The translations under genes and the position numbers were made by a program. Below are positions 16,860 through 64,000 of a DNA stretch of 64,000 nucleotides, one piece after another; positions within the stretch are counted from its first letter, which is position 1, and each line of letters opens with the position of its first letter. Location of the stretch: NCBI GenBank assembly GCA_963737265.1, contig CAVTRY010000016.1, positions 224,001 to 288,000 of the forward strand, written 5' to 3'. Source of the stretch: an uncultured delta proteobacterium (GTDB lineage Bacteria; Myxococcota_A; Polyangia; Fen-1088). The notes beneath the pieces were generated by a model that had not been told where the DNA came from, did not search any database, and was given only the letters and a program-made list of their open reading frames with translations.

Positions 16860-17025
16860 TGAAGAACTGTCCAAAAATTGGACAGTTCTTCAGCAGCCGA
16901 GCCAAGGGCTCGGCCGCAGGTGGGGTGAAGTCCGCGAATTTACTTCGCGGACGAGGGGAGGGCAGCGGCCTGGGCAGCGGCCCTCCTTTCAAAAATCTTC
17001 AAGACGGGTCCATTTATGGACACGT
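16860..17025 (+). mobile_element. Dispersed hairpin mini-element, copy A (long form)
   Basis: Near-identical to 36684-36837 (reverse), 58804-58901 and 63765-63860; four palindromes; followed by CTTGAG. Confidence 0.85.
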
Positions 17026-17205
17026 CTTGAGTGACCTGTCGCTGGCCGGGACCCCTCTCGCTCGCGTCTGCCACGCATGGTAAGGCCGGCACCGAAGAGG
17101 ACGATGGTGGCGGGCCGCGCATTGTTTCGAAGAATGCCGCGATTGCGCTCGGCCAGCGCGCGGCGTTCGGCCTCGGCCATCCGTCTGGCACCGACGTCGC
17201 ACCGT

Positions 17206-17238
17206 GGGTTCTTACCATCCAAGCATGGGTCTTCCCAA
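17206..17238. repeat. 33-bp imperfect direct repeat, copy 2
   Basis: GGGTTCTTACCATCCAAGCATGGGTCTTCCCAA. Confidence 0.8.
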
Positions 17239-18088
17239 GGAAGCTGGCAGGCGCCCCGCGACTCTGAAAAGCGAGCCTGGGCTTTCCGCGGCGAGCTCGG
17301 ACTTGAGTGCGACCAAGCCGATGTGGAGCAATCGATCGCCGACCGTGCGTGCGGAAGGCGGAATCGTGGTGTTGGCATGGTCCGCGGCGGCCGAGCGATC
17401 TGCGCTGGACAAGGTTTCGAGAGACGCCTGCCCGATCGCGCGCGCCCACGGTTCGCCGGCCGATGCCATGGCCCGCGCGCGCAGGCCGGGAGCCGCGCCC
17501 GCGAGGGACTGGCCCACGGTTCGCGCACCATGGCGGGTGGCCTCCGCCAGCAACTCCTCGAATTGCAGATGGCAAAGCCTCCGCGCCACGGATTCCGCAA
17601 GCGCTCTCGCACAAGGGCTCAAGCCAACCGAAGGCCAAGCGCTCGATGTCGCGGTGAATTCCCGCTGACAGGCGCACCGGCGCGTCCATCGTCAGGCCGA
17701 CATCCGCGTCGAGCAACCCCTCGACAACTGCCCGCACAGAAACTGCCCCCGCAGCCTGCGGCAATCCGCTCCACAACGTGCGTAACAGGTACGCCGGCTC
17801 GCCCGCCAGTGCCTCGTGGATCCAGCTCGGATGCAATCGTTCAAGTCCCATGGGCAGCCCGCTCGCCGCCTCCCGCAGCCACTCGGCCCGAATCTGCGCC
17901 TGTGCTTCCACGCCCACGGCGCGCAGCGCCCGCCACGCCTTGGAACACGACTGGCGGCGATTTTCGTCCAGCGCGTCGAGGCTCGCTTCCTCGGCGCCCG
18001 TGGCGAGCATGAAGAGCAGAATGCCGCGCTCTTCGCGGCCAGTTTCTGCCAGGGTCGAAGCTCCCCTGGATGTCACGCCGTTCGCCAC
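17212..18088 (-). CDS. Probable T3SS sorting-platform component (SctK-like by position); frameshift near 17600
   Basis: Two overlapping ORFs join into one helical protein (..LEPLCESA / AESVARRL..); LERLHPSWI motif; lies upstream of sctL-sctN. Confidence 0.5.
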
Positions 18089-18215
18089 GCCCGCAGCCTA
18101 GCAGCCCGTGACGAAAGTCTCCACGCCGCCGCTCGGGCGTTTCGGGCGTGTCAGAGCCCCGCGCGCGACGAAAGCGACGCGAGGGCGACAGGAATGTCGT
18201 GTTTCGACTCCCCGC

Positions 18216-18398
18216 TTAAACTAGTCGACGTGCGCCGTCGCTATCCGACTGCTCGACCTGGGCAACCTCGAGGTAGCGAATGCGAAAGGCGTCGCCGCCG
18301 TAAGCGGTAAGGCCCCAATCCATCGCGTCTTCAAGGTCGGCGAAGAGCGCCGCCGGAGTATTTTGCCCGTCGGGAATGATTGCGAAGCAATGGATCAT
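18216..18398 (-). CDS. Small hypothetical protein
   Basis: GGGGAGG RBS; 60 aa with globular composition. Confidence 0.6.
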   Translation of the reverse strand: MIHCFAIIPDGQNTPAALFADLEDAMDWGLTAYGGDAFRIRYLEVAQVEQSDSDGARRLV

Positions 18399-18575
18399 GG
18401 CCGACCTCCCCTTGAACCTCTAGTGGCGCCCTGATGAGTTTCCAGCATGGCTGGCGAAAACCGGACAGAGCCGACGAAAAGCTGACGGGCGGTGGTTGAA
18501 AATTCCTGCACGAGCGTCTCCTTGAAGAGGGTACACCCTGGGCGAAGCAAGCCGCGGACCAAGATCGCGCGGCGA

Positions 18576-19113
18576 TTATTGCCTCTTCTTTTCGGTCGCG
18601 CTCGGCGATCGCTTGAAGCCTAGCAGTCCCGGCGCGTCCTCAACGCGATAGAGCCTGACGCTAACCTTGTCGTTGCGATCCGCATAGAGACGCGTGTGAT
18701 GCGGTAAATAGCCATCCGCCCTGATCTCAAGATCGATCGGACCGCCGCCCCGCGGCCGCGTCAGCTCGGCATCCATATTGCCGGGCGAAAATTTGGCGAC
18801 TTGCTTCTGCCCCCACATCGCGACCGCTTTCACCGGCGGCGACACGCTCAGACGCAGGGTCACGTTTTCCGAGAACGGATTGGCCTCGCGCTCTTCGGTC
18901 TTCAGCTCTTCGGTTTTAGGCTCTTCGTGGTCGTCCTTGGCGACGTCTTTGACCGGCTCGAACGACCACCGGAGTCGGCTCGGCTGGCAACGCGCTTGGC
19001 TTGCTCGATTGCGATGTTGGCACCTCGCGGTTTTGCGGCGCGACCTTGTCGCCCGCGCTCGAACAGCTGCACAGGAGGACCAGCGCGATCGAAGATCGGC
19101 GACGCGCGCTCAC
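18576..19113 (-). CDS. Probable lipoprotein co-transcribed with the L,D-transpeptidase; frameshift near 18960
   Basis: GTGA overlap; signal ..LVLLCSC; continues in another frame as EPVKDVAKDD..TLRLSVSPPVKA..DGYLPHHTRL. Confidence 0.55.
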
Positions 19114-21200
19114 TGGCCGCCTCCAGCTTTGCTGTCCGGGCCGCTGGACGCCGCCGGCGGTTTGCCGTCGCCGTATTTCACGCCCGGCTTGGGCACATAG
19201 CCCGCGATGGGCTGTTGCAGCTTGCCTTTGATTTTGCCCTTCAAGGTTTCGACCGGCACGGGCGGATCCAACTGGAAATAGAACCCGCGCGTTGGCAGGC
19301 GCATGTCGTAAACCTCGCCATCCCAGTAGAAGGTGCGACGGAAGCCGAGCGCCATCGGCCCCAGCACCTTGGCGCGATGGTGCCCAAGCACGAAGGAAAA
19401 CATGCGCACGGCCAGGTTGTTGTAGAGCCGGTGACAGCCGTGGGAAAAACGACCACGCAAAGACAGGTAGTCGAACGAGCCGTGGGTGCGAATCCCGTTG
19501 TCGAAGTAGGCGAGTTGGCTTCCGTGCCGGCGCAGCTGTTCGTGAATGCCGGCCACCAAGCCATAGGCCGAAAGGTAGCCGGGGCCGGTCTCGTCGTAGT
19601 TCACCACATGCGGATAGCCACCCGCGACCCATTTCGTCTTCACCATCGAGCCCATCGGCGACGACGTGGGCGGAAGCCACACCGGCGCGACCACGATGTG
19701 GCGCCATACCCGCGCGCCCACGTCGGAATCCTTGTAGCGGTAGTATTCCTCACCGTCCGAGGCAAGCTCCGAGCGCCAGCCGCCGATGGTGGTGCGCCAA
19801 TTGACCAGTGGCACTTTTTCCCCGCGCCACTTCACGAACAGCGTGAACGACGGGTAGCGCTCGCGCGGCTGCGATACGCGGTTGCCCTTGCTGTCGAAGG
19901 GAAAGTCGTACCAAATGTCGCCGCGATCGATCTCGGCCAGCAAATCCATGTGCGGGCCGTAATACTCGGGCAAGGCAGGAAAGCGCACGGCCGCACGCAG
20001 CGAACGAAAGTCTTTGTCGGGATGGCGGCGAAAAAAGGCCAGCGCGTCCTCGGCGGTCGACAAGCCTAGGCGCGCCAGGAGCGCGAGGGTTGCCTGGCCC
20101 ACCAAATCCGGCACTGGCACGTCGTCGCCGGCGGCATTCTTGTAGGTCGGCGGCCTGCGCTGCTCGCCTCGCTTGGGCAGAGGCATGGCATCGATGGCGC
20201 TGCCGTCCTCGATGATCCTGCCGGCGTGGGCCGCGCGTTCGGCCAGCACCCGTCGCAGGGCGAGAAAATCGTTTTGCAGCAGCGGCCGCGCCATGGCCTC
20301 GAGCGTTCCACGCGTGAGATCGGCCTGGGCGAAGACGGCATTCTTCTGCTGAAAATCCAGGGCGGCGGCGCGCATGGGACCATCGTAGGCGCCGGCGTGG
20401 TGTTTGCCTGCATCGAGTAGCCCTTCGCACATCAGGCGTTTTTCCACCTCGGCGAAGGCCGCGCGCTCGGCCTCGACGCGCAGGTGATCCTTCACGTCCT
20501 TGGCGTAGCGCTGATCCTTGCCGGCTAGCTCTTCCAACGTTGCGATGCCGGCCTTCTTCTGCGCGGCTTCCAGCCGCAGAGCGCGAAAGTGATGCTTGGC
20601 GGCTTCCTTCTTCTCGGTGCTCTTGCCCCAGGTCTCGATGCTGTCCACGGCCAGCAGCTTCGCCGCGTCCACCGCGCTTTCGCAGGTGCGTCCGGCGTCT
20701 TCGAGAAATCTTCTTCGCACCACCGACAGCGAGGGCGGAACGCCGTAAAGCTCCAAGTAATTGCGCTCGCCGGGCGGCAGCGGCTCGCCGTCTCCGTCGC
20801 TGCGGTCATTCGCCAGACCGACAAATACGGCGCGGTAGCGATTGGGCAACGGCGCACCGTCGGCGGCCTTGCCGTCTTGAAAGATGAACGGCGCGAAATC
20901 GTCGGAAAGGTCCACAATTGTCAGACCTCGGCTGCGCGCCACCGCAGCATCGACCAGGCGTTCTTTTCCGAAGGCGACTTGAATCGCGCGACGCTCGGGC
21001 GGAAGCCCCGATGAAGCTTCGGGCAAGGCATCGTCGTCGGGTTGGGAACTGACGGGAACCGCCGGGGAGGTTGCCGGACGCAAGGGCGGTTCGGCATGGT
21101 GCACGGCTTGCGGCGCGGGCGCGTCCTTGCCCCGGCACGAAATCGCGCCGCTCGCGGCGAGTAGAATTGGCAGTAGTGACTTGGTCGATTTGCGCTTCAC
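19110..21200 (-). CDS. L,D-transpeptidase (YkuD family) with a peptidoglycan-binding-like domain, lipoprotein
   Basis: IRTHGS....RGRFSHGCHRL catalytic motif; DGPMRAAALDFQ; lipobox-like AISC. Confidence 0.85.
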   Translation of the reverse strand: MKRKSTKSLLPILLAASGAISCRGKDAPAPQAVHHAEPPLRPATSPAVPVSSQPDDDALPEASSGLPPERRAIQVAFGKERLVDAAVARSRGLTIVDLSDDFAPFIFQDGKAADGAPLPNRYRAVFVGLANDRSDGDGEPLPPGERNYLELYGVPPSLSVVRRRFLEDAGRTCESAVDAAKLLAVDSIETWGKSTEKKEAAKHHFRALRLEAAQKKAGIATLEELAGKDQRYAKDVKDHLRVEAERAAFAEVEKRLMCEGLLDAGKHHAGAYDGPMRAAALDFQQKNAVFAQADLTRGTLEAMARPLLQNDFLALRRVLAERAAHAGRIIEDGSAIDAMPLPKRGEQRRPPTYKNAAGDDVPVPDLVGQATLALLARLGLSTAEDALAFFRRHPDKDFRSLRAAVRFPALPEYYGPHMDLLAEIDRGDIWYDFPFDSKGNRVSQPRERYPSFTLFVKWRGEKVPLVNWRTTIGGWRSELASDGEEYYRYKDSDVGARVWRHIVVAPVWLPPTSSPMGSMVKTKWVAGGYPHVVNYDETGPGYLSAYGLVAGIHEQLRRHGSQLAYFDNGIRTHGSFDYLSLRGRFSHGCHRLYNNLAVRMFSFVLGHHRAKVLGPMALGFRRTFYWDGEVYDMRLPTRGFYFQLDPPVPVETLKGKIKGKLQQPIAGYVPKPGVKYGDGKPPAASSGPDSKAGGGQ

Positions 21201-21647
21201 GATGTGGCGCCCGTGGATCTACTGCGGTCGCGACCTCATGGCGAGATTTGTCTGGACCGCGGAGCACAAAGGCAAAATCCCATGAACTACTGTCCATGGC
21301 GGGCGAGGGGTTTCACCCATCCCCGAGCCGGGACACCAAGAAACGCCTGGATTCGGCGGCAGTGCTGCGCGGGCTGCGAAATTGCTCCATCGGCTCAGCC
21401 CAGGTTTGGTGCCATCTGGGACAAACTCGTCGGCGAATGGTACGGGGGACCGGCCCAGCCTTGGCCAGAGTACCTTCAAGCCGTGTTCGCAGACGTGAGA
21501 CGCGAGCCAACCAAGGATGCTCTTCTCGCGATCCAGCGTGAGTGTAAACAGCGCCTGACGGTGCTACGAATCTGGGAGGTTAGTCCGTGGTCTGCGCCGG
21601 TAGCGCCGACTGCGTGCCCCGTGTAAATTGGGCTGCGGGAGTAACCC

Positions 21648-22979
21648 ATGATGAATCTGTCGCCACCGCGCGGTTTTCTCGCCGGTCTCTGCTTGCTTGA
21701 AATGTTCACGACCTCGGGCTGCGGCAGCGATACCGGCGCGCCACCGGTCTACGCGCCAAACCTCAAGCTCTTGGTGCTCTCCGACCCGCACTACTTCGAT
21801 CCCTCGCTCGGCACCTCGGGTGCGGCGTTCGAGGCCTACCTGGCAACCGACCGCAAACTCATCGCAGAGAGTGACGCCATCATGCAGGCCATGGTCGCCC
21901 AGGTGCAGGCAGAAAATCCGCAAGTCGTCCTCATCTCCGGCGATCTCACCAAAGACGGCGAGCTGCTTTCGCACCAATCTGTGGCGCGCTACCTGCACCA
22001 GATGCAGTCCGGCGGGACCAGTGTCTTCGTCGTGCCCGGCAATCACGACATCGAGAACACAGGCGCAATGAGCTATTCAGGCGATAGTCAAACCCCCGTT
22101 CCGACCATCTCGGCTTCCGACTTCGCCACCATCTACAACGATTTCGGCTACGGCAACGCCATCTCTCGCGACAGCCAATCGCTGAGCTACGTGGCCGAGT
22201 TGGTGCCCGGGCTCTGGCTTCTGGCACTCGATTCGTGCATCTACACCGATGCGCTGGGCGGCTCGCAGGTATCGGGGCGCTTTCAGGACAGCACCATGGT
22301 TTGGATCAAAGCCCAGCTCAACGAGGCACGGAAGGTCGGCATCCGAGTCATCGGCATGATGCACCACGGAGTCCTTGAGCACTTCACCGACCAAGCGCTG
22401 ATTTTTCCCGAATACCTGGTGAACGACCGCGCAACCGTGGGCAGCATGTTTTCGAATGGCGGCATGGGAGCGGTTTTCACCGGACACTTCCACGCCAATG
22501 ACATCACCCAGGGAGCGCCGAGCGGTGCCACCAAGTCCATCTACGACATCGAGACCGGCTCGACTGTCACCTATCCCTGTCCCTACCGCATCGTCAACCT
22601 CGCCAGCGACGTCCTCACCATCACCACGAAGCACGTCACCAGTATCGACTACGACCTCAACGGCGCACCGGATTTTCAGACCTACGCGCACGACAGCCTG
22701 CGCGTTGGACTGGAAGGGCTCATTACCGGCCTCATCGAGCAGCCGCCCTATTCGCTTTCTGCCAGCGATGCCGCGGCGTTGGCACCCTGGCTCGGCGACG
22801 GCCTGGTGGTTCACTACGCTGGCGACGAGGTCATGCCCGCCGATGTCCTGGCCGAGAGCCAGACGCTGCTCGCCGCGACCGACTTCGTTCATCAACTTTC
22901 GGGGGCGATGCTACAAAGCATCTACACCGACTTGCCGCCGCCCGATAACAACGTGACCTTAGATCTGTCTGCGCGGTGA
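21648..22979 (+). CDS. Calcineurin-like metallophosphoesterase, lipoprotein
   Basis: SDPH, ISGDLTKDG, PGNHD, MHHG, TGHFH motifs. Confidence 0.9.
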   Translation: MMNLSPPRGFLAGLCLLEMFTTSGCGSDTGAPPVYAPNLKLLVLSDPHYFDPSLGTSGAAFEAYLATDRKLIAESDAIMQAMVAQVQAENPQVVLISGDLTKDGELLSHQSVARYLHQMQSGGTSVFVVPGNHDIENTGAMSYSGDSQTPVPTISASDFATIYNDFGYGNAISRDSQSLSYVAELVPGLWLLALDSCIYTDALGGSQVSGRFQDSTMVWIKAQLNEARKVGIRVIGMMHHGVLEHFTDQALIFPEYLVNDRATVGSMFSNGGMGAVFTGHFHANDITQGAPSGATKSIYDIETGSTVTYPCPYRIVNLASDVLTITTKHVTSIDYDLNGAPDFQTYAHDSLRVGLEGLITGLIEQPPYSLSASDAAALAPWLGDGLVVHYAGDEVMPADVLAESQTLLAATDFVHQLSGAMLQSIYTDLPPPDNNVTLDLSAR

Positions 22980-23592: not shown

Positions 23593-23609
23593 GGCACTGG
23601 TTTCACCTG

Positions 23610-26692: not shown

Positions 26693-26736
26693 GCTGTACC
26701 TCCGAGTTCCTCCTTAGCAACTGCCACGACATCTGC

Positions 26737-27181: not shown

Positions 27182-27188
27182 GCCACGC

Positions 27189-36568: not shown

Positions 36569-36643
36569 CGACTGTAGCGTACCGGGTTCTCCGTCACGCC
36601 GCAATCGCTTCCGCAACGTCTGATTTCGCAGCTTCGCCTCAAG

Positions 36644-36834
36644 ACGTGTCCGCGAAGTAAATTCGCGGACTTCACCCCTCAAGACGTGTCCATAAATGGA
36701 CCCGTCTTGAAGATTTTTGAAGGGAGGGCCGCTGCCCTCCCCTCGTCCGCGAAGTAAATTCGCGGACTTCACCCCACCTGCGGTCGAGCCCTTGGCTCGG
36801 CTGCTGAAGAACTGTCCAATTTTTGGACAGTTCT

Positions 36835-36837
<3 letters not shown>
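36644..36837 (-). mobile_element. Dispersed hairpin mini-element, copy B (long form plus an internally deleted tandem mini-copy)
   Basis: Begins at the ettA stop codon; both units end ACACGT next to CTTGAG. Confidence 0.85.
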
Positions 36838-38511
<1,674 letters not shown>

Positions 38512-42557: not shown

Positions 42558-43329
42558 CAGATCCCTGACCGACCACAGATCCCTGACCCACAGATCCCTG
42601 ACCGACGGTAGTTGAAACCATCGCAGATCCCCGCGACCGACGGTAGTTGCCAGATCCCTGACCGACGGTAGTTGATCCTCAGATCCCTGACCGACGGTCA
42701 CGCAGATCCCCCCCCAGATCCCCCCAGATCCCCAGATCCCCGACCGACGGTAGTTGCGGCGGATCCCTGCCCCCAGATCCCCCAGATCCCCGACCGACGG
42801 TAGTTGCGGCGGATCCCTGCCCCCAGATCCCCGACCGACGGTAGTTGCACAGATCCCCGACCGACGGTTGTCCAGATCCCCGACCGACGGCAGATCCCCG
42901 ACCGACGGTCAGATCCCCGACCGACGGTATCGCAGATCCCCGACCGACGGTAGTTGCGGCAGATCCCCAGATCCCCGACCGACGGTAGTTGCGGCAGATC
43001 CCCAGATCCCCGACCGACGGTAGTTCCCACAGATCCCCGACCGACGGTCAGATCCCACAGATCCCCGACCGACGGTCAGATCCCACAGATCCCCGACCGA
43101 CGGTCAGATCCCCGACCGACGGTAGTTGCCCAGATCCCCGACCGATGGTGCAGAGACCCCCGACCGACGGTCCAGAGACCCCCGACCGACGGTAGTTCAG
43201 ATCCCCGACCGGGGAGATCCCGGGGAGATCCCCGACCGACGGTAGTTGCCCAGATCCCCGACCGACGGTAGTTGCCCAGATCCCCAGATCCCCGACCGAC
43301 GGTCCCAGATCCCCGACCGACGGTAGTTG
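42558..43329 (+). repeat. Polarised array of about 40 variably 3'-truncated units of CAGATCCCCGACCGACGGTAGTTG
   Basis: Units counted by eye; shared start AGATCCC; core palindrome ACCG-A-CGGT. Confidence 0.95.
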
Positions 43330-44525
43330 AAGATGGACGTGCTGCAATTCCAGAGCTCCAGTTTGAAGTCGACCCAATAGGTCCTATGGCAGGTGCACTG
43401 GACACTCCAGCAGGCCGCGGATTGGCCATTCCGGTGTGGGAACGAAGGTGCGCAACGGCGGCGAACGCCTGGCGAGATGCCTTCGAGACAGAAAGCTGCC
43501 TTTATGAGGCAGAAGTGCCTTTCTCATCGAGGCTCGGTGGCCCTGCCTCACGGCGACGCTGGGGCTCCGCCGGGCGAAGCATGGGCATCCTGCACGCCAT
43601 CCGTTCCCTCGCTCAGCACGCGTGCGAACCTGCGCATCCAGTAGGTCCCGAACGGGAACACGACATCGGCGACGCCAGCGGTCCATGCCCTGATGGCCAA
43701 GCGGTACCGCTCGAGAAACGCCTTGCTGCGGCCGATCGCCTCGATCCTTGGCCACTTGCTTCTGGCGGCGACGCGCGGGCTGATAGCGAAGTGCGGCTCG
43801 GCGCTTTTCGGGCAGTCAAAAGGGTTTTGGGCGAGAATGGCCTCGCGACCGAGGACAGTCTTGCCAGTCGCGCGGCGGCGTTCGCGGTGTTCGGTTTCGG
43901 CGGTGCGGACGCGGTCGGCCACGAGAGCGTTCCATTCGTCCTGAGTCTGACAGCAGAAGCCGCTGGGCCTGCGTAGAGGCAGAATGGCGACCGCGGGCTA
44001 CTGTCCTTCGGAGCGAAAGAAATACTTCGGTCTGGTGGCGATGAGTCGTTGTGTGGTCAGCGCGGCCTGGAAGCTACTGACGCCGGGCCATTCCTCGATG
44101 GTGTCAACCAAGTCGGCGGCGGACGGGTTGGCGTAGGCGTAGACCATCTTGTCGAGAACGTCGTTGGGTTCGACGAGGCGGACGACGGAGGTTGGGTCGG
44201 ACGACCAGAAGGCCTCGAAGCGACCGAGATGGGTGTTCTGGCAGCGGGCAAGGAGGGCGTGAAAGTGTTCGGCAAAGATGGGGAAGTTGCCCTCGGCGTC
44301 GTGCAGCCCAGCGTGGTAGTGGTTGGACATGGCCACAACGAAGAAGATTTCGACCTTGGCTCTCTGCGCGGCGAGGGCGAGGCAATAGACAAAGGCGTTG
44401 TTGGTGTCCTCGTTGCTGAGCGACAATTACATCTCCCCAAAGACGACAGCTACGTCGCCCCGCTTTGAGGCGCGACGGTGACCGTGAGGTAGACCTCCAA
44501 GCCCGCAAGCGGGCAGGAGGCACCT

Positions 44526-46869: not shown

Positions 46870-47019
46870 TTGACGTCACCGGGTGAATGTAGTTGACGTC
46901 CAGCACCTCGTCGGGACGCAGGAAGAAGCGCCGCTCGGAACAACGGCGCGTAATCATGTAGTCGGCACCCGGAAGCACCTGGCGTGGAAGGCTCATGCCG
47001 GGGTATCGGTCAGGGTGCC

Positions 47020-47258
47020 AGAGAAGTTGCTTCGAGAACTACCCTCGGTTCGGATCACCGATCACCCGCGGGCTTCGAGAATTACCCTCGGTTCGGATCA
47101 CCCGGAGAAGTTGCTTCGAGAATTACCCTCGGTTCGGATCACCAGCGGAATTACCCTCGGTTCGCACCCGAGAAGTTGCTTCGAGAATTACCCTCGGTTC
47201 GGATCACCAGACGAGACGGTTCGGATCACCAGAATTGTTCGGATCACCAGAATTACCC
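47020..47258 (-). repeat. Polarised array of GGTGATCCGAACCGAGGGTAATTCTCGAAGCAACTTCTC units (minus strand), variably truncated
   Basis: Related to, and inverted relative to, the left array (GATCC..ACCGA.GGTA.TT). Confidence 0.9.
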
Positions 47259-47274
47259 GAAACCATCGATCAGG

Positions 47275-47415
47275 AACCGCCCGCAGTGAGCGTCCCGAGG
47301 CGCGCAGGAGACTTGACATGTCGTAGCTGTCGATGGCGTCGTAGGTGCCGATCATCAAGAGCACGATGTGGGGCGTGTACTCCGGCACGACGCTGCCTGT
47401 GGACGATAATGGCGG
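47275..47415 (-). pseudogene. SGNH/GDSL hydrolase internal fragment
   Basis: PHIVLLMIGT(Y)D....YDMS..(frameshift)PARLGTL resembles the block III GTND region. Confidence 0.55.
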
Positions 47416-47448
47416 CCAAGCACCAGGTCGGCGCGGGCCTTGTCAATG

Positions 47449-47931
47449 TCACTTTGGCGAGCGGCTGCCCGAGGTCGAGATGCGCTCGAGGCTCTTGAGG
47501 TCGGCGAGATCCTGGTCTCGGCCGGATGCACGTTTGTTCTTAAGCAATGCCAACCGACCGATGATGGGAATGGTGCGACCGTCGATCTCGATGCTGGCAC
47601 CATCCGCCATCGCCTCGTCGAAGGTGATGCCGTCGACGCGGTTGATGATGTCGATGCGCAGCGGTGGAACCCCGATCTGCAGCACGCCGTCGTAGCTGGC
47701 GAAGTCGCCTTCGCTTACTTCGAAAGCGGACAGCGACGCGCCGAAGGCCCCCAAAGCACGATAGACCAGCGCCGCATTGCCGCTGGTCGCCCGTACCAAG
47801 ACATCCAGATCCTTCGTGGCCCTGGGATGTCCGTGGAAAGCGACGGCGTGCCCGCCGACCACCACGAACTCGGCGCCTGCGTCGCAGAGGGCGAGCAGGA
47901 GATCGCGAAAGTCGTCGGGAAGGTCGATCAT
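47449..47931 (-). CDS. Nucleotidyltransferase-fold protein
   Basis: VVVGGHAVAFHGHPRATKDLD, RIDII, KNKRASGRDQDLADL. Confidence 0.8.
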   Translation of the reverse strand: MIDLPDDFRDLLLALCDAGAEFVVVGGHAVAFHGHPRATKDLDVLVRATSGNAALVYRALGAFGASLSAFEVSEGDFASYDGVLQIGVPPLRIDIINRVDGITFDEAMADGASIEIDGRTIPIIGRLALLKNKRASGRDQDLADLKSLERISTSGSRSPK

Positions 47932-48152
47932 GTCGCTCGCCTGCGGACGAACCTGCAAGGGATCTGCGCGCGTGCGTAGACGGGCAGCGCATGCCCCGCA
48001 AGGCTGTAGCTTATCCGCGTGAGCCGGTGGACCAATGAAACAGCCTCTGCGCCGAACACCGGGGTGAAGTCAACCTCAGGGTCGCCGAGGTGAGCCTTGC
48101 GCAGGGTCATTCGCGCCCGTCTCGCTTGCGACCGTCTTTCGGCGTCCGTCAT
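47928..48152 (-). CDS. Small partner protein of the nucleotidyltransferase
   Basis: ATGA overlap with the nucleotidyltransferase gene; 74 aa. Confidence 0.6.
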   Translation of the reverse strand: MTDAERRSQARRARMTLRKAHLGDPEVDFTPVFGAEAVSLVHRLTRISYSLAGHALPVYARAQIPCRFVRRRAT

Positions 48153-48339
48153 GTGCCAATCCCCACGCCGCCAGAATAGCGTCTTTGCGAGCGGACGCCA
48201 AACATCCGCAGCCGGCCACCCGTAGCCGGCGGCACCGTTTCCACCGAGGTCAGCGTGGGCGAGCGAGGGAGCGGCTGCGCGCCGGTCGCCTTGACGCCGG
48301 CCACGCCTTTGTCTTGGGCGCGGCCCGTAGCGCTCGCCG

Positions 48340-48427
48340 CTAGCTGGCCAGCTTCGCGATCAAGTCGCCGACCTCGCGCGTGCCCGTACCCATCTTGCCG
48401 GCGGAGAGACTCTTGATCTTGATGCCC
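48340..48427 (-). pseudogene. 3' fragment of an isopropylmalate/isocitrate dehydrogenase family gene
   Basis: IKIKSLSAGKMGTGTREVGDLIAKLAS* resembles the LeuB-family C-terminus; begins exactly at the repeat. Confidence 0.6.
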
Positions 48428-48574
48428 GTTCCTATCCCCCGTTCCTATCCGAGGGTACTTTTGAGGACGGATGAGATCCCTCAAATAGCAGGAACCATGT
48501 CCGGCTTCCGGGCGCGAGGGCTGGCGCTCAACTACCCTCGGTGAGGAATCGGAGATACCCTCGGTTCGGATCAC
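48428..48574. repeat. REPIN-like unit, copy 1
   Basis: Inverted ends TCCTATCCGAGGGTA...TACCCTCGGTGAGGA around a conserved ~75-bp spacer; repeated at 49857 and 50167. Confidence 0.85.
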
Positions 48575-49850
48575 CTACGAAGTGGTCGAGAAGGTGGCCC
48601 GCCGATGTGGCTTTCTCAAGCGTCGCCGCGATGTCGCGCCCGCGGCGCTTCTGGTAGCGTGCATTTCGGCCCTGGGCGCGGGCGCCGCCATGTGGCTTGC
48701 CGATATCCTGCGCGCGTTCAACGCCTTTACCGGGAAAGCCGTTCGCTACAAGCCGTTCCACAACCAGATCAGCAAGCCGAAGTTTCCCGACTTCGTACGC
48801 GCGATTCTGGAGGAGTTGCTGGCAAAGCTCACCGCGCCCGTGCTCGAGGGGTTACCGAAGAGCAAGCTGGCCCAGTTCGAGGAAATTGTGGCCCACGACG
48901 GAACCTCGTTTGCCCTCAAGAACACCCTCGCGAAGAAGTGGCCGGGGCGCTTCAAGAAGCTGACACCGGCTGCAGTAGAACTCCACGTCACGATGAGTGT
49001 CCTCAGCGACAACCCGGTCGCGATTACCTTGGCTCCGGACAGGGAGGCTGAGCGCCCGTTCCCTCCCAAGGCGGCTTCCCTCAAGAACCGCCTGCTGCTT
49101 GAGGACCGTGGATACCAGGAGCGAGAGTTCTTCGTCGCCGTACAAGACGCCGACGGTTCCTTCATAGTCCGTGGCACAAAGTGCATCCGGCCGACAATCC
49201 GGACCGCTCGCGATAGCCAGGGCTGTCGTCTCCGTCACCTTGAAGGAAGACGCCTCTCGTGGTCCCTGCTCCCCCGTCATGACGTCGACCTCGAAATCGA
49301 TTGGAAGCGCGACTCGGGCAGGACCTACAGCGGTCGTCTTGTCGTCATCTATGCCGAAGGAAAGCGGAACCAGGCGTCCTTCGTCTACCTGCACACGAAC
49401 TTGCCCCGTGAGACTTTCTCCGCGCACGACGTGGGGCAGATCTACAGGCTAAGGTTCTACAGGCTAAGGGGCAAGTCGAGCTGCTGTTCAAAGAATGGAA
49501 ATCCCGCTCAAACCTCCACAAATTCGACACCGGCAAGGCCCCCATCGCCGAGGGCTTGATCTGGGCCAGCCTCCTCGCAGCTACGCTCAGGCGCTGCATC
49601 ACCCACGCGGCCGAGCGTGCGTGCGGCATCCCGCTGTCCACACAGCGCGCAGCCCGTTTCGCCAAGCACTTCCTCGACGCAATCCTGGCTGCCGTCCTTG
49701 AATGCAGCACGAGCCTCTTCGACGACATACGCGCCGCCTTCGCTTTCCTCGTTGGCAACGCGCTTCGGGCACATCCGAAGCGCGACCGAAAAACCGGACG
49801 CCTCGCCGCGGGACTTCGCCATGTGGCCGTCGCCTAAGTACCTACGTATG
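48575..49850 (+). pseudogene. IS4 family transposase, 5'-truncated and frameshifted, with its right end
   Basis: HDGT, EDRGY, YRLR(W)QVELLFKEWKS broken by a tandem TCTACAGGCTAAGG duplication; end CCTAAGTACCTACGTATG. Confidence 0.8.
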
Positions 49851-49856
49851 AAGACA

Positions 49857-50341
49857 TCCTATCCCCCGTTCCTATCCGAGGGTACTTTTGAGGACGGATG
49901 AGATCCCTCAAATAGCAGGAACCATGTCCGACTTCCGGGCGCGAGGGCTGGCGCTCAACTACCCTCGGTGAGGAATCGAGGAATCGGAGAATTACCCTCG
50001 GTTCGGATCACTCCGACCTCAGGGAATTACCCTCGGTTAGGCTTTCACCGGTTAGGTTAGGCTTTCACCGGTTAGACTTTCACCTCCGCGGTTAGGCTTT
50101 CACCTCCGGTTAGGTTTTCCACCGTACACAGGGAATTACCCTCGGTTAGGCTTTCAAGGCTTTCAAGGGTACTTTTGATGACGGATGAGATCCCTCAAAT
50201 AGCAGGAACCATGTCCGACTTCCGGGCGCGAGGGCTGGCGCTCAACTACCCTCGGTGAGGAATCGAGGAATCGGAGAATTACCCTCGGTTCGGATCACTC
50301 GGAGCGGATCACTCGGAGAATTACCCTCGGTTCGGATCACT
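49857..50341. repeat. REPIN-like copies 2 and 3 plus truncated arrays (AATTACCCTCGGTTCGGATCAC and AATTACCCTCGGTTAGGCTTTCACC)
   Basis: Directly visible repeats that share the TACCCTCGGT core. Confidence 0.9.
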
Positions 50342-50547
50342 CCCCGAAGGGGGCAGCGCGGCCGTTGACCTCCGTTCCCGGAAGATTCGTTCCGGCGCAA
50401 ACCCGCTGAGGCCGAGCGAAGCAAGCGATGGGCAGGGTGGGAGGCGGGGCCGAAGCCGGGCGTCCACTCTCCCGAATGCCCGCACGGCATCAACCTTTCC
50501 GTCACAACGGCGATTGTCGTTGTATGATTGTGCCAATGAGCCGGCTT

Positions 50548-55078: not shown

Positions 55079-55095
55079 GTGCCTGGTCGCGGAGC

Positions 55096-57174: not shown

Positions 57175-57182
57175 GGAAAGAA

Positions 57183-58049: not shown

Positions 58050-58054
58050 TTGAG

Positions 58055-58606
58055 CTACACTATGGACGCGAACTCTTCGAACGGGATGCGCGTCGAGGGC
58101 TCGGTTTCCGCTTTGATCTGCCAGTCGTTGAGCTCGGAAGAGATCGTCTGAGCGCGTCCGCCCACCATGATGAGGGCGATGACCTGGGCCTCCGTTGGCA
58201 GGGCCAGAACGTCCCGAGCCGCCTGTGCATCGAACCCGGCCACCGGATGGGTCACGAGATTCCGCTCGGTCGCCGCCAGCAGCAACAGCGCGGTCGCCAT
58301 GCCGGTGTCGAACTGGTGGTAGTCGCGCCCATCCGGCGTCCTGCAACCGAGATCGGCATGCGACCACACGGCGACGATCATCGACGCCTGTTTGGCCCAG
58401 GTGGCGTTCCCGGGCGCCAGCACCCCGACCATGCGTTCGAGCGCGCCCTTGCTGCGAGCGAAAACGAAGCGCCAGGGTTGCTTGTTCGCACACGACGGCG
58501 CCCGGCTGGCCGCCGCAGCCAGCTCTCGGATGAGCGCATCGCTCACCTCCACCGCCGCGAACGAACGCAGCGCCCTACGTTGCTTGACGACATCCTCAAA
58601 TTCCAT
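58055..58606 (-). CDS. Nitroreductase family protein
   Basis: RRALRSF, APSCANKQPWRF, FDTGMA, HPVAGFD. Confidence 0.9.
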   Translation of the reverse strand: MEFEDVVKQRRALRSFAAVEVSDALIRELAAAASRAPSCANKQPWRFVFARSKGALERMVGVLAPGNATWAKQASMIVAVWSHADLGCRTPDGRDYHQFDTGMATALLLLAATERNLVTHPVAGFDAQAARDVLALPTEAQVIALIMVGGRAQTISSELNDWQIKAETEPSTRIPFEEFASIV

Positions 58607-58678
58607 CGTGTGCTCCAGCGCCAGTCTAGCCCGCATTCGCCACCGCCGCACGACCCGCAGCTTTTCTCGATGGGTGCC

Positions 58679-59358
58679 TCACACTTCTCCTCGGTCCATC
58701 CACTTCGGAACGCTCGTGACCTTGTAGCGCTCAAGAAGTCGGAGCAACAAAACCGGATCCTGCTCCAGCAAGACCATCTGGCGATGTTCGGGCCTGAGAA
58801 ACCGCAGGTGGGGTGAAGTCCGCGAATTTACTTCGCGGACGAGGGGAGGGCAGCGGCCCTCCCTTCAAAAATCTTCAAGACGGGTCCATTTATGGACACG
58901 TCTTGAGCCACAAGCACGTCCAGGAATTGGAGTAGCGGCGCGAAAAAATCCTTGGCGCCAGGGAGACCCAAAGGCTTCTGATGGAGGCCAAGTTGTGCCC
59001 AGGTCCACATCTCGAAGAACTCCTCAAGGGTACCAAGTCCGCCGGGCATCGCGATAAAGGCGTCCGCCAGCTCGGCCATCATTTTCTTCCGCTCGTGCAT
59101 GCTCGAAACCACGTGCAGCTCGGTCAACGAATCATGAGCGACCTTCTTCTCCACGAGCGCACGCGGAACGACACCAATGACCTTGCCGCCAGCAGCAAGC
59201 ACGGAGTCGGCGAGAGCCCCCATGAGTCCCACCTTCGCGCCGCCATACACGAGCACGCGGTCGGTTTCAGCAATGACTTTTCCGAGCGCTTTCGCGCCGG
59301 CCATGAAGAGTGGGTCGGCACCTGGACTTGAACCGCAGTACACGCATATGTTTCGCAT
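58679..59358 (-). pseudogene. LOG family nucleotide phosphoribohydrolase split by the mini-element
   Basis: [25 protein letters not shown]; displaced C-terminus FLRPEHRQMV...PKWMDRGEV* at 58679-58803. Confidence 0.9.
58804..58901 (+). mobile_element. Dispersed hairpin mini-element, copy C (98 bp)
   Basis: Excision restores an intact 193-aa LOG frame; no target duplication; abuts CTTGAG. Confidence 0.9.
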
Positions 59359-59362
59359 CGAT

Positions 59363-60070
59363 CTATCCGGCTAGCATCGCCTGCACCGCGTCGCGCACGC
59401 GTTCGTTGAGCCCGGCGCGCGCTTCGTCGTCGAGGCCCTGCGTGGCGATGGGCTCGCCAATGACGGCAGTGATGGTGCCGCCGCGGAGCAGGAAACTTCC
59501 GCGCGGCATGAGCGCCCGCGTTCCGCGCAGGGCGACCGGCACGATGGGAACGCCCGCCTTCACGGCCAGGTGAAAGCCGCCCTTTTTGAACACGCCGAGG
59601 TTACCGTCGCGCGTGCGCGTACCCTCGGGAAAGATGAGGACGGATTCCCCGTTGTGGATGCGCTGGCCGGCCTGGTCGATGCTTCGCCGCGCGGCCACCG
59701 GGTTCTGGCGGTCGATGAAGATGAAGCGCCCGGCGCGCATGGCCCAGCCGAACAGCGGAATGCGGCCGAGCTGTTTCTTGGCGATCATGCGCAAGCGACG
59801 CGGAACGGCCACGAACATGGCCCAAATATCCAGCGACGAGGCGTGATTGGCCATGAAGACGTAGGGCTGGTTTGCATCCAAGTTGGCGCGATTCTCGACC
59901 ACGATCTTCACGCCGGCGAACGATGTCACCCAGGCGGACCAGGCGCGGGCCAGATCCAGGACGCGATTGCCACTCGGGTCAACAAGGCGCAGCACCAGAC
60001 CCCAGACGCTGCCGACGATGGTCGCGAACGCGATGAACAACAAAGTTGCAACGGCTCTCAGGAAAGACAC
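59363..60070 (-). CDS. plsC: 1-acyl-sn-glycerol-3-phosphate acyltransferase
   Basis: NHASSLD, FIDR, FPEGTRT, FKKG. Confidence 0.9.
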
Positions 60071-60092
60071 CGGTGCATGGTATCCTCCCGGC

Positions 60093-60998
60093 GTGGATTT
60101 CCGGAAGACCTACTATGTGCTTCCGAACCTTTTCACACTGTCGTCCGTACTGTGTGGGTTCGCTTCCCTCGCTCTCAGCGCCTCTGGCCGCAGCGGGGCC
60201 GACCTCTATCTGGCGGCGCTTGCCATCTGTTTCGGCCTGTTTTTCGACACGTTCGATGGTCGAGTCGCTCGCCTGACCAAGACCCAGACCGATCTTGGCC
60301 GCGACCTCGATTCGCTGGCCGACGTCATCACCTTCGGCGCCGCGCCGGCCCTGCTGGTGTACAAGTGGGGCCTGACTGATTTCGGCATGATGGGCATCTT
60401 CATCGCCGGTCTGTTCGTGTGCGCGGGCGCCATGCGCCTGGCGCGCTTCAACGTGCTTTCCCGTCGCGACGAGGCGTCCGGGCACAAGAAGCCGAGTAAA
60501 TTCACCCTCGGCCTGCCCATCCCGCCGGCGGCCAGCTTGCTGGTCTTCATGGTCATCGTCAGCCGCAACGCTGGCGAGTACAAGCTGGTCAGCGAGGGAT
60601 CCACCGCCATCATCGTGCTGGTGCTGTCGTTCTTGATGGTCTCGCGCGTGCGCTTCCGTTCGTTCAAGGAGCTGCGCCTGACCGCCAAGACCGTCGGCGT
60701 GGTGCTGCTGGTGGGCGGCGCGTGCGCGTCCTGGGTCGTGTCGGGTTTCGCCAAGGCGTTTATCTTCCTGTTCCTCGTGCTGGCCTACATCGTGCTCGGC
60801 CTGGCCGAGGAGGTCCTGTTCTACCGACGTCGGCGCGCACAAGAGCGCAAGCCCGCCGCGCCGCCCGCGCCCGAGGCGCCCGCCGTGCCCGACGAGGAAG
60901 TTCTGCGCGAGCTCGGCGCCTTCGACGACGACGAGCAGCCGGACAAGGACACGGACAAGGATCCGGAAAAGGACCCGCTAAGCGAGCCCGGTCGCTAG
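60093..60998 (+). CDS. pssA: CDP-diacylglycerol--serine O-phosphatidyltransferase
   Basis: LPNLFT, D.FDGRVAR...G.DLDSLAD..TFG.APA, RLARFN, GLPIP. Confidence 0.9.
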   Translation: MDFRKTYYVLPNLFTLSSVLCGFASLALSASGRSGADLYLAALAICFGLFFDTFDGRVARLTKTQTDLGRDLDSLADVITFGAAPALLVYKWGLTDFGMMGIFIAGLFVCAGAMRLARFNVLSRRDEASGHKKPSKFTLGLPIPPAASLLVFMVIVSRNAGEYKLVSEGSTAIIVLVLSFLMVSRVRFRSFKELRLTAKTVGVVLLVGGACASWVVSGFAKAFIFLFLVLAYIVLGLAEEVLFYRRRRAQERKPAAPPAPEAPAVPDEEVLRELGAFDDDEQPDKDTDKDPEKDPLSEPGR

Positions 60999-62389
60999 TT
61001 TTTTGCCACGACCGGCGGCAGTGCCTTGAGGATGGCGATGCGCGGCCGGACGGCGTCCAGATAGGCCGCGCGATTGGCCACCCCTGCCTCGCGCAGCACC
61101 GGCAACTTGCTTGGATCGATGAACTGGCCGTTCTTGACCACGCTGAAATGCAGGTGCGGGCCGGTGGAAAGTCCGGTGGTGCCGACGTAGCCGATGACTT
61201 CCTTCTGCTGCACCATCTTGCCGGTTTTGAGGCCCTTGGCGAATCGGGACAGGTGGTAGTAGCGCGTTTGCAGTCCGTTTGGGTGCACGATGGCGATGGT
61301 GTTGCCCGAACCGCGCTGCATGTCCGCCTCGACCACCTTGCCGCTTGCCGGCGCCCACACCGGCGTCCCGACCGGCGCGGCGTAGTCCACGCCCAGGTGG
61401 GCCCGAATCGTGTGCAAGATGGGATGGAAGCGCTTGAGATCGAATTTCGAGCTGATGCGCACGTAGCGCAGCGGCGACTTGAGCATGCTCTTGGCCAGCG
61501 CCTGGCCCTTCTCGTCGTAGTAGTGGCCGTGGCCGCGTTCGCCGCTCGGGTTCCAGTAGAAGCCGCGGAAGGTGCCGGTCTTGCCGCTGTACTCGGCCGC
61601 CAGCAGCTTGCCGTACTTGTAGAACTGGCCGCCGAGAAACTGCTTTTCGACGATGACCTTCCAGCGATCGCCGGGATGGGTGTCGGTGTAGAAATTGATG
61701 TCCCAGGCGAACAGGTCGACCAGCAGACTGACCAGCGCGCCCCCCTCGCCTGCCTTCGAGACCGACTCGTAAAGCGACGATTCGGCGGTGCCGCAGGCCT
61801 GCGCAAGCTTGATTTCCAGGGGTTTTTCCTGCTTCTTGGCCTGCCAGGTACCGTCCGACTTGCGCGTCACCTGGTAGCGCAGCACCGGCGTGGGCATGTA
61901 CTCGAAGCTCTCGGGCGTGCCTTCGTCGTCGCGATCGACCTGGTACTTTTCGCCCGCCCGAATCAGCTTGGGATCGACCAGCTTGGTCAGCGCGGCGGTC
62001 ACCCCCAGCGCCGCCCCGCCAAAGCCTTCGCGCGCCAGCACCGTGCCGAGCGTGTCCGACGGACCTATCTGTCCCTCGATGGCATGACCGTCGGGACTGT
62101 CGCCACTGGCCGCCGCCTGATCCGCCGGCTTCTCCTTCTTCTTCTCATGGTAGTCCGCGCCCAGCAGCGACGGCGGAATCGACTCCGACAGCGCCTCGCG
62201 CTTGCCGTCGACCAGCGACTGGCTGGTGGAAACCGGCCTCATCAGGTTGTGAACGGAGGTGTCGTGGCGAAAGAAGAAGAAGTAGATGTTGACCGCGGTC
62301 AGCACCACCAGCAGGCCGCCCAGGCCAAGCGAGTTACGCATTTGTTGCGGGCGACGCTTTTTGCGCCTTGGAACCAGCGAACGTGCCAC
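60995..62389 (-). CDS. M23 family peptidoglycan endopeptidase (MepM-like)
   Basis: HLGVDYAAP, YYHLS, TGPHLHF; N-terminal TM segment. Confidence 0.9.
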   Translation of the reverse strand: MARSLVPRRKKRRPQQMRNSLGLGGLLVVLTAVNIYFFFFRHDTSVHNLMRPVSTSQSLVDGKREALSESIPPSLLGADYHEKKKEKPADQAAASGDSPDGHAIEGQIGPSDTLGTVLAREGFGGAALGVTAALTKLVDPKLIRAGEKYQVDRDDEGTPESFEYMPTPVLRYQVTRKSDGTWQAKKQEKPLEIKLAQACGTAESSLYESVSKAGEGGALVSLLVDLFAWDINFYTDTHPGDRWKVIVEKQFLGGQFYKYGKLLAAEYSGKTGTFRGFYWNPSGERGHGHYYDEKGQALAKSMLKSPLRYVRISSKFDLKRFHPILHTIRAHLGVDYAAPVGTPVWAPASGKVVEADMQRGSGNTIAIVHPNGLQTRYYHLSRFAKGLKTGKMVQQKEVIGYVGTTGLSTGPHLHFSVVKNGQFIDPSKLPVLREAGVANRAAYLDAVRPRIAILKALPPVVAKN

Positions 62390-62445
62390 CCCCTATAACC
62401 ACCACACCGTCGCGGGCACGTCAACTTCGAGTCGCGCTTTTTCCG

Positions 62446-62730
62446 TCAAACTCGCCCCTCGCGCTCGATGAACTCCAGCAGGGCGTGGCCCTTGTCGCGT
62501 ACGCGCTTTTTCAAATCCGCGTGCCGGCGCCGCTCTTTCCAAAGCTCCTCCGTGATCTGCAGGGCGGTCAGGATAGCCAGCGACTGGGTGTCCGCGGTGT
62601 GCGTCTGCTTCTGCAGCTCGCGCAAGTGCTTGTCCACGTGGGCGGCCATCTCGCGCACGACCCGTTCTTCCTCGTCGCTGCGCAGGGTGAAGCGATGGCC
62701 GGCAATGGTGACGACGACAGGACTCTTCAT
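62446..62730 (-). CDS. zapA: Cell division protein ZapA
   Basis: VTIAGHRFTL, A..VD..L, AILTAL.I.EEL followed by a coiled coil. Confidence 0.9.
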   Translation of the reverse strand: MKSPVVVTIAGHRFTLRSDEEERVVREMAAHVDKHLRELQKQTHTADTQSLAILTALQITEELWKERRRHADLKKRVRDKGHALLEFIEREGRV

Positions 62731-62820
62731 GCATTCCCCTGCCAGACACTTTACCCCTTGGCGAACCGGCGCGTCTCCCTCGTTCGCGTTGCCGGCGGCG
62801 AAGCCAGGTCGGACGACGCG

Positions 62821-63195
62821 TCAGGCCTCGCCGATTGGAGACGAACAGGCGACGCTCGACAGCGTCGAAAGACCGAGCGATGAAAGCACCATGCGATCCT
62901 CCAGACTGACGTCGAGGAAGCGGATCCCCATGCCACCGGTGTTGGGGGCATCGCTCACCCAGCGCACTTCCCCGCGCAGTTCCAGCGGACGGTCGCGCCA
63001 AGGGATGTCGAGCCACACGCGAACCGATTCGCCGGTGGCGTCGAGATAGTCCGAGCAAAAGAAGAGGCCGTCGGCGCTCACGTCGGTCACCACGCCCTCG
63101 ACGACGAGGCTGTCGCTCACATACTTGGCCTCGATCTGCACCTTCATGCGGGCAGACCGTCTCAGCTCTCTCGACCTCTCAAGGTATGGCAACAT
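62821..63195 (-). CDS. PilZ domain protein
   Basis: RRSAR, DVSADG, GEVRW, GMGIRF. Confidence 0.85.
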   Translation of the reverse strand: MLPYLERSRELRRSARMKVQIEAKYVSDSLVVEGVVTDVSADGLFFCSDYLDATGESVRVWLDIPWRDRPLELRGEVRWVSDAPNTGGMGIRFLDVSLEDRMVLSSLGLSTLSSVACSSPIGEA

Positions 63196-63470
63196 CTTGT
63201 GAACCCCCGTCGCATCGTCCGGCATTCAGCATTCGCCAGCATTCAGCCCCATCGGTTGTCGTGTCAACTTCTGTAGCGTTAGAGCCGCTACCGGCGTGTT
63301 CTTGACCAAGTCCCAGGGTAGACGCGATGCATTTTCAGGCGTTGATTCGCGAGCGGAGTTTTTTCCATACGAAAGTCGCCACCCGTGCTACAACTTCCCG
63401 CCCGGTCAGCCGACTGGCTTTACCGACCGGCTTTACCGACCAGACTTCGCCTAACATTTTCCGCCCGCTC

Positions 63471-63543
63471 GGGCCCATAGCTCAATTGGTAGAGCTGCGG
63501 ACTTTTAATCCGTAGGTCGCAGGTTCAATTCCTGCTGGGCCCA
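63471..63543 (+). tRNA. tRNA-Lys (TTT)
   Basis: Acceptor stem GGGCCCA/TGGGCCC; anticodon loop CTTTTAA; T-loop GGTTCAATTCC. Confidence 0.95.
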
Positions 63544-63569
63544 CCGCCCCTCGCCAAAAAACTGAATAG

Positions 63570-63644
63570 GACCTCGTCGTCTAGTCCGGCCCAGGACAGT
63601 GGCCCTTCAAGCCACGAACACGGGTTCGAATCCCGTCGAGGTCG
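63570..63644 (+). tRNA. tRNA-Glu (TTC)
   Basis: Acceptor stem GACCTCG/CGAGGTC; anticodon arm GTGGC-CCTTCAA-GCCAC; GGTTCGAATCC. Confidence 0.9.
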
Positions 63645-63764
63645 CTAGCTGCCTGCCCCCAGCAGGATGCAAGCGGGATGCGGCTGAATCGCTCCCCTTC
63701 ACAGGCCGGCCGAAGCCCGAGGGTGGCTACTATTCCGCCCGGACAACCGATCATCTATCGACGA

Positions 63765-63860
63765 AGGTGGGGTGAAGTCCGCGAATTTACTTCGCGTACG
63801 AGGGGAGGGCAGCGGCCCTCCCTTCAAAAATCTTCAAGACGGGTCCATTTATGGACACGT
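63765..63860 (+). mobile_element. Dispersed hairpin mini-element, copy D
   Basis: Near-identical to copy C; followed by CTTGAG. Confidence 0.85.
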
Positions 63861-64000
63861 CTTGAGGCGAAGTCCTCCAGATGGAGAGAATCTGGTCGAA
63901 AGATGTTGAGAATCTGGCGGGAGAGACCGGAGAGAGCGCGCAAGCTGCGGCAACGGGGAATCGGTGGAAGTTCACCATCGCCCGCCGCAAGTGAGGATGG

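Follow-up and report, generated by a model that had tools for sequence, protein, structure and literature searches.

A 160-nt hairpin-ended mini-element inserted with fixed polarity at CTGAG sites in the genome of an uncultured delta proteobacterium

Insertion sequences (ISs) of the IS91 family insert without a staggered cut and next to a tetranucleotide. IS608 recognises its tetranucleotide via base pairing (PMC5934647, PMC3201880), and tyrosine HUH transposases termed TIRYT are tied to families of inverted repeats (PMC3733652). The latter source defines repetitive extragenic palindromic (REP) sequences by a conserved unpaired GTAG (or CGTC) tag beside a hairpin, and it also describes orphan REP families. 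Here we report on a short repeat from a 64-kb stretch of DNA (positions 224001-288000 of contig C16, hereafter the window) in the 6.55-Mb assembly of an uncultured delta proteobacterium, termed G000 (25 contigs, 63% G+C). The repeats are copies of an orphan non-autonomous miniature transposable element of 160 nt, inserted in one orientation at CTGAG sites. No description of this element was found in the literature on miniature inverted-repeat transposable elements (MITEs) of Planctomycetes, on CTGAG as an IS target or on bacterial MITEs with 3-bp duplications.

Six occurrences of the 13-mer GACACGTCTTGAG are found in the window, against 0.06 expected from shuffles, and a BLAST search with a canonical copy recovered 58 loci in G000, IS-split copies being counted as two loci. 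Both ends are present at 25 of these loci, 24 of which hold complete copies, mostly 98-100% identical; the left end is missing from 18, the right end from 12 and both from 3. A sequence-only reading of the window had described one fixed end with variable far ends. The left end, (C)TGAAGAAC, present in 37 of the 58 loci, is as fixed as the right one, and the shorter copies are left-, right- or internally deleted derivatives and not one-ended products, with microhomology at two of the deletion junctions. Both tips are inverted repeats of AGAnnTGTCCA, AGAACTGTCCA agreeing with AGACGTGTCCA at 9 of 11 positions. The four copies proposed by the same reading were correctly located, their borders now being corrected to those of Table 1 with the piece at 36638-36677 set apart, and its possible trace of the family at 7135-7146 is instead an isolated right end from a sister family that has this terminus too. 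Along a 1.1-kb stretch, contigs of soil and bog metagenomes cover nothing but the element and branch at 16859/16860 and at 17029-17034, in agreement with the element borders. Three "skip" joints in one sequencing run were considered as signs of excision and set aside; they rather resemble other subfamilies.

That the element is mobile and non-autonomous had been proposed from the letters of the window, and it is borne out by five insertion loci with empty counterparts: three of full-length copies, one of a truncated copy and one of a TGT-subfamily copy. The empty site of the copy on contig C22 was found in a second genome (G002:C21) in DNA 98-99% identical, and that of the copy on C12 in a paralogue on the same contig with flanks 99.6-100% identical. 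The copy on C23 has two paralogous empty sites, one on contig C14 and one within the window, the latter with flanks identical to those of the copy at 100% (left) and 95.6% (right) over 250 nt. All of these empty sites read CTGAG. The three filled sites read C-TGA-[153 nt]-TGA-G and are 156 nt longer than the empty ones, or 168 nt longer for the C12 copy, which bears a 12-nt internal duplication. The truncated copy at 58803, with empty sites in G005, G008 and G011, was accompanied by no loss of target DNA, and its left junction has CCGC in common with element positions 55-58, a microhomology as expected of a deletion following full insertion. The TGT-subfamily copy has its empty counterparts in G002 and G010, where the sequence is C-TGT-G. 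Target conservation is confined to 5 nt: the base 5′ of the left TGA, which precedes the 160-nt non-coding unit, is C at 33 of 37 left ends of the element (family 1) and at 17 of 18 of the sister family (family 2), and the base 3′ of the right TGA is G in 41 of 41 family-1 copies.

Because the empty sites read CTGAG, the CT of the string CTTGAG at the right junction belongs to the element and TGAG to the target, with TGA standing on both sides. The CTTG(AG) flank that had pointed to an IS91-type target is therefore not borne out, and a CTTG/GTTC target of the IS91 kind is absent. Rolling-circle transposition of the IS91 kind, with a fixed origin end at CTTG and variable termination ends, could call on the 28 matches to Y2_Tnp (the IS91-type domain) in G000, which represent at least two IS families, and on the CTTG that spans the right junction. 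Against it stand the empty sites without CTTG, the fixed left end and truncations on both sides. The two IS91-like IS families of the genome were also examined for a link to the element and rejected, as their ends are unrelated to it and their flanks unconserved; we give this model next to no credence. One of these IS91-like families has a fixed downstream end and variable upstream ends.

Folded as single-stranded DNA, the element forms five GC-rich hairpins, A to E (-60.3 kcal/mol against a shuffle mean of -21.7, z = -12.8). The terminal hairpins A and E are related palindromes, which makes the tips inverted repeats. Across 12 copies from 5 genomes 96.8% of the structure cells are paired, and both partners have changed in five base pairs, of which hairpin A contains three and hairpin D two. 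The observed covariation score was reached by 0 of 500 shuffles, a statistic that counts copies of related sequences and not events. The flanking DNA takes part in this fold, just as the sequence-only reading had supposed in speaking of a hairpin completed by the target: the internal TCAAGACG pairs with CGTCTTGA, flanking bases extend both terminal stems, and the outermost 3-4 bp of both stems are formed with target bases. The partner of the left C-TGA is TCA-G in the inner arm of hairpin A, and that of the right TGA is the inner TCA of hairpin E; the inner flanks of both hairpins are TCA and not TGA. Hairpin A was also considered as a nested mini-insertion; its flanks read TGA...TCA, with no direct repeat, and the idea was dropped.

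Compensatory changes that maintain hairpins A and D would also suit a structured RNA or terminator module that is not mobile as such, spread by recombination and kept for a host function, and such a module would suit the many copies placed directly after genes and the occurrence of the element in contigs of one metatranscriptome (DNA carry-over being possible). Complete copies that are 98-100% identical at unrelated loci, together with precise 156-nt insertions in otherwise identical paralogues, argue against this reading; some copies lie within reading frames, and Rfam gave only a chance-level match to a miRNA (17.6 bits against a cutoff of 70, E = 1). We regard a host-function module as very improbable.

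The element has relatives both within G000 and outside it. Family 2, likewise of 160 nt and with 12 full copies, has inverted ends of ~19 nt and a GC-rich interior unrelated to that of family 1, and a tip scan of G000 added mini versions of 39-57 nt as well as lone ends with the same tips. The sister family and the mini versions share tips and flanks with family 1. Further families in other genomes and in metagenomes have these tips with other trinucleotides, namely TGT (G008, G002; a related subfamily of sister species), AGA (G064) and ATA/ATG (G004). The trinucleotide is constant within a family and differs between families (TGA, TGT, AGA, ATA); the first base of the left tip varies among A, T and C. 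Of 12 sister species of the genus, 8 contain matches to the right 105 nt, as do 3 further genera of the family and a single genome from another family, and in two species hairpins B-C-D are tandemly amplified between A and E with an 87-nt period. A conserved internal motif of ~25 nt, GCGCAAGTGATCG(A/G)AATCATTGGA, is shared by other families of this superfamily (L218-L220 in G064; L235, L242, L246 and L264 in metagenomes).

Insertion is strictly polar. Read in the orientation of the element, TGA stands on both sides of all 24 complete family-1 copies and all 12 family-2 copies, and TCA is seen in 0 of 36. This polarity bears directly on the ordinary explanation, a DDE MITE resembling those groups of the IS5 family that insert at three nucleotides. 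A cut-and-paste or copy-paste transposase would here recognise both tips in double-stranded form and make staggered cuts of 3 nt in C-TGA-G, TGA then being duplicated by repair. A symmetric enzyme, with a two-fold symmetric transpososome, should insert at CTGAG/CTCAG in both orientations, and the strict polarity therefore argues against it, as do a trinucleotide that is fixed in each family yet family-specific and a left tip whose first base varies. Against it also counts that no partner IS was found in G000, although most complete copies are 98-100% identical (DUF4096 and DDE_Tnp_4 each gave 0 matches there). Tips that are inverted (family 1 at 9 of 11 positions, family 2 over ~19 nt), a nearly palindromic target and a TGA that is single in empty sites and double in filled ones nevertheless fit a DDE enzyme, and L068, a TGT-type element in a TGA site, is what would be expected were the target read by the protein and not by the element. 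We consider a DDE MITE unlikely on the whole, albeit a serious contender.

Complementarity between flank and element offers another view of the target. The left trinucleotide matches the inner arm of hairpin A as TGA/TCA in the G000 copies and six others, as TGT/ACA in L064 and as AGA/TCT in L073. Four TGT copies pair with the inner arm solely via T-G wobble, six copies mismatch, L068 among them, and the inner arm of hairpin E shows no covariation with the flank. The earlier proposal of target choice by complementarity thus has mixed support: three pairs of trinucleotides covary in some subfamilies, and against it stand L068, several other mismatches and the absence of a local complement in family 2. 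From these pairings, target guidance encoded by the element appears possible.

Polarity and repeat could also arise together by site-specific recombination via a circular intermediate, which would carry a single copy of the trinucleotide at its junction and recombine with a target having a common 2-3-nt core, as with DEDD enzymes (IS110/IS492) or serine recombinases (IS607), since identity of the core would explain both. Fixed orientation, a family-specific identical core and seven IS110-type DEDD matches in G000 fit such a scheme. IS110-type elements, however, specify targets longer than the 5 nt conserved here. These ends were not seen on any IS110-type or serine-recombinase element of G000, whose single TnpB locus, tried as a candidate, has no similar ends. 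We hold this mechanism to be distinctly improbable.

The sequence-only reading had also proposed looking for a transposase bordered by the same end. Neither such a gene nor any other autonomous partner came to light, be it in G000, among 89 genomes of its family or at 37 metagenome loci. Over G000, the tip motif with at most one mismatch gave no IS-sized pair of tips, the DNA inward of 12 lone ends is unrepeated save for known ISs, and scans for TGA-flanked inverted 9-mers and for looser motif pairs returned only IS-interrupted or neighbouring MITEs. Among the matches listed in the scan of the genome collection, most were chance ones in unrelated phyla, and the 37 metagenome loci comprised MITE families, partial copies and likely chance matches, none with a transposase beside the tip. 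Y1 genes resembling RAYT/TIRYT (the transposases of REP and terminal-inverted-repeat families) are found at nine loci of G000, in two groups, all under the curated cut-offs; when translated, the two groups bear HUH and catalytic-tyrosine motifs by eye. A link to the element was rejected here as well, since other short repeats flank these genes, with no element tips or flanking inverted repeats. With repeats of their own on either side, the loci resemble the REPtron/TIRtron arrangements of PMC3733652. One weak match of this kind (24.9 bits) lies in the window between two arrays of ~22-44-nt repeats (Table 1). An IS3-like IS of ~1432 nt, present in ~23 copies with variable 3-bp duplications, has a left inverted repeat that agrees with the left end of the mini-element at 17 of 25 positions by eye.

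We tentatively favour movement by an orientation-specific, HUH-like cut after TGA, a reading to which we accord somewhat less than an even chance. An enzyme acting in trans and specific for orientation would move the element; the likeliest candidate is a single-strand HUH nuclease (Y1, RAYT/TIRYT-like) that would read the conserved terminal stem and cut 3′ of TGA twice, in the left flank and at the element's own right end. Such cutting would give an apparent duplication of TGA without a staggered cut, and the inner TCA flanks of hairpins A and E would confine it to the outer sides. Orientation specificity of the enzyme accords better than a DDE MITE with the strict polarity, with a trinucleotide peculiar to each family, with the variability of the left tip's first base and with the missing partner despite very recent amplification. 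For an HUH enzyme count the nine Y1-like loci and 28 Y2_Tnp matches of G000, and HUH cutting 3′ of TGA reproduces every observed sequence. IS608, the inverted-repeat families with tyrosine transposases and the orphan REP families provide precedents. HUH mobilisation had been suggested by the sequence-only reading, and orientation-specific insertion, as in HUH elements, agrees with it. The TGA on both sides is formally the direct duplication of target bases, typical of DDE MITEs, that the same reading had named as speaking against its proposal; an unstaggered cut would yield an identical sequence.

Several observations weigh against the HUH reading. Inverted tips with an identical 3-nt repeat are the feature by which textbooks know a DDE MITE, the geometry of the cuts shows perfect symmetry and C-TGA-G is nearly palindromic. 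The base after the cut is strongly conserved, which no Y1 transposase known to us needs. The tips of family 2, likewise flanked by TGA, lack any local hairpin or complement, and the terminal motif is absent within 1.5 kb of the five Y1-like loci checked, the others having been assessed by flank comparison. Nor does the orientation of the element follow local GC skew, taken as a sign of the replication strand (family 1: plus, 18 against 14; minus, 13 against 10; 25 contigs), though this skew is very weak, with a median absolute value of only 0.011. The wider proposition of an unrecognised class of hairpin-ended mini-elements, served by a strand-specific enzyme (HUH or other) that would recognise a conserved terminal stem and cut behind a family-specific trinucleotide partly set by the inner arm, we consider doubtful but worth stating.

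Insertions are frequent at gene ends. In 17 of 52 copies an open frame of 200 codons or more ends at the left TGA, compared with 337 of 5347 among all CTGAG sites (p = 1e-8), and about one third of the copies lie exactly on a host TGA stop codon, which the insertion keeps. We read this excess as survival of stop-preserving insertions and not as targeting. In the window, the stop of an ABC-F ATPase gene is the left TGA (36837-36835) of the full-length copy on the minus strand. Its orthologues in 12 of 12 sister species stop at the same codon with the element absent, and their stops are TAG in 8, TGA in 3 and TAA in 1, one species reading C-TGA-G. A Laminin_G_3 open reading frame runs at its 3′ end through the entire copy at 16860, gaining 57 element-encoded residues before it meets a TGA just beyond the element.

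Table 1. Copies of the mini-element, related sites and neighbouring features; positions without a contig prefix are those of the window, and C numbers are contigs of G000
Feature	Position	Strand	Remark
Lone right terminus, family-2 type	7133-7147	+	TAGACACGTCT + TGAG, 15 nt
Full-length family-1 copy	16860-17031	+	172 nt including flanking TGA...TGA-G
Internally deleted piece adjoining full copy	36638-36677	-	separate from 36678-36838
Canonical full-length family-1 copy	36678-36838	-	C-TGA-153 nt-TGA-G
Left-truncated family-1 copy	58803-58907	+	element positions 55/59-160
Left-truncated family-1 copy	63765-63866	+	element positions 59-160
Unoccupied CTGAG target	49048-49052	+	paralogous empty site of the copy at C23:532361-532522
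13-mer GACACGTCTTGAG	7135, 17019, 58895, 63854
13-mer GACACGTCTTGAG	36638, 36678	-
Full-length copy with empty site in G002:C21	C22:7007-7168
Full-length copy with paralogous empty site	C12:77405-77578
Full-length copy with two paralogous empty sites	C23:532361-532522
Hairpin D hot-spot loci	16940-16975; C13:174716-176143; C15:160876-162302; C12:63086-66005; C21:79602-79789
Two inverted full-length copies (L032)	C11:1156840-1162393		bracket ~5.4 kb
Laminin_G_3 open reading frame	16447-17034
ABC-F ATPase gene	36835-38511	-
Weak Y1 match between two repeat arrays	42577-43330; 44085-44420 (-); 47018-50343
Direct repeats	20090-20389/35366-35665		300 nt, 97%
Direct repeats	21195-21283/35673-35761		89 nt, 93%
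tRNA-Lys(TTT)	63471-63545
tRNA-Glu(TTC)	63570-63645
Y1-like proteins, examples	C23:170311-171234; C11:693778-694714
Y2_Tnp examples	C13:567816-568361; C8:26479-27171; C11:1331874-1332539		clustered in IS-rich regions
IS3-like IS, examples	C11:1395709-1397140; C12:22871-24302

The copies in the window (Table 1) differ in how much of the element they retain. The full-length copy on the plus strand carries a 12-nt duplication within hairpin D and has G instead of C as its left flank base. In the internally deleted piece, which matches query positions 63-93 plus the terminal motif, hairpin C is joined at a common GGAC to the final 10 nt of the element, and both left-truncated copies are without the left 54-58 nt. 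The 12-nt duplication is shared by three other loci; it resembles the footprint of an excision, made up of a 9-bp duplication and 3 nt, which would later have spread along with the element. Hairpin D is also a hot spot for other ISs: one IS4/5-like IS of ~1.43 kb interrupts two copies at an identical position, and a different insert occupies that spot in two more. Two inverted full-length copies on contig C11 enclose a segment much of whose interior is absent from sister species and which may be composite or rearranged.

Upstream of the truncated copy at 63765, by ~120 nt, lie two tRNA genes, and homology to sister species stops soon after them, as at the border of an island; relatives' homology is lost ~107 nt before the copy, which leaves it with no empty site for comparison. 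The window further holds two pairs of direct repeats ~15 kb apart.

Should the doubtful wider proposition be true, the element would represent a natural, re-targetable and DNA-guided insertion system that mimics a DDE MITE and survives preferentially on TGA stops, and the class would be widespread in the soil and peat relatives of the host. If polarity and family-specific trinucleotide reflect movement by something other than a DDE enzyme, possibly with guidance by the element, insertion sites would be chosen here in a novel manner. Exact pairs of empty and filled sites, combined with near-identical recent copies, would also make it a tractable case for studying how orphan palindromic repeats spread. 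Even the ordinary reading is useful for annotation, as the element supplies or replaces gene ends (the Laminin_G_3 frame, the ABC-F gene) and contigs of metagenome assemblies end or diverge at its borders.

Among known systems, MITEs of the IS5 family of DDE elements (IS1031/IS427-like) are alike in being small and non-coding, with inverted tips, a 3-nt repeat at a short target and many near-identical copies. The element differs from them in a polarity fixed relative to the non-palindromic centre, in its family-specific trinucleotide, in tips that fold into local palindromes including the flank, and in that a matching transposase was not found in the genomes and metagenome loci searched. The IS91 family is an HUH family abundant in G000, from which the element is set apart by its CTGAG target, two fixed ends and the unrelated sequence of these ends. 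In IS608 the complement lies on the opposite side of the left hairpin, whereas in the element it lies 3′ of the hairpin.

The IS200/IS605 family and its miniatures (PMC3201880, PMC5934647, PMC5027513) share with the element oriented insertion by a fixed sequence of 3-4 nt, a hairpin at each end, a hairpin foot that carries the complement of the cleavage sequence, and no need of a staggered cut. Their hairpins are subterminal, in the same orientation and without inverted termini, whereas A and E are terminal palindromes: the ends of the element are inverted, its hairpins reach the very tips and the complement merely extends a stem. In addition, the base after the cut is conserved in the element, and no Y1 gene with these ends was found in the searched set. 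REPs differ in other respects: the element has no GTAG, its CGTC lies inside the stem of hairpin E, and the exact pairs of empty and filled sites and the 5-nt target established for it have no counterpart in the available text of PMC3733652. Like the REP/REPIN-RAYT and TIR-TIRYT systems of that source, the element consists of inverted palindromic pairs that are intergenic and occasionally within genes; HUH enzymes are encoded elsewhere in those systems, where some repeat families are orphan, and RAYT/TIRYT-like genes are present in G000 too.

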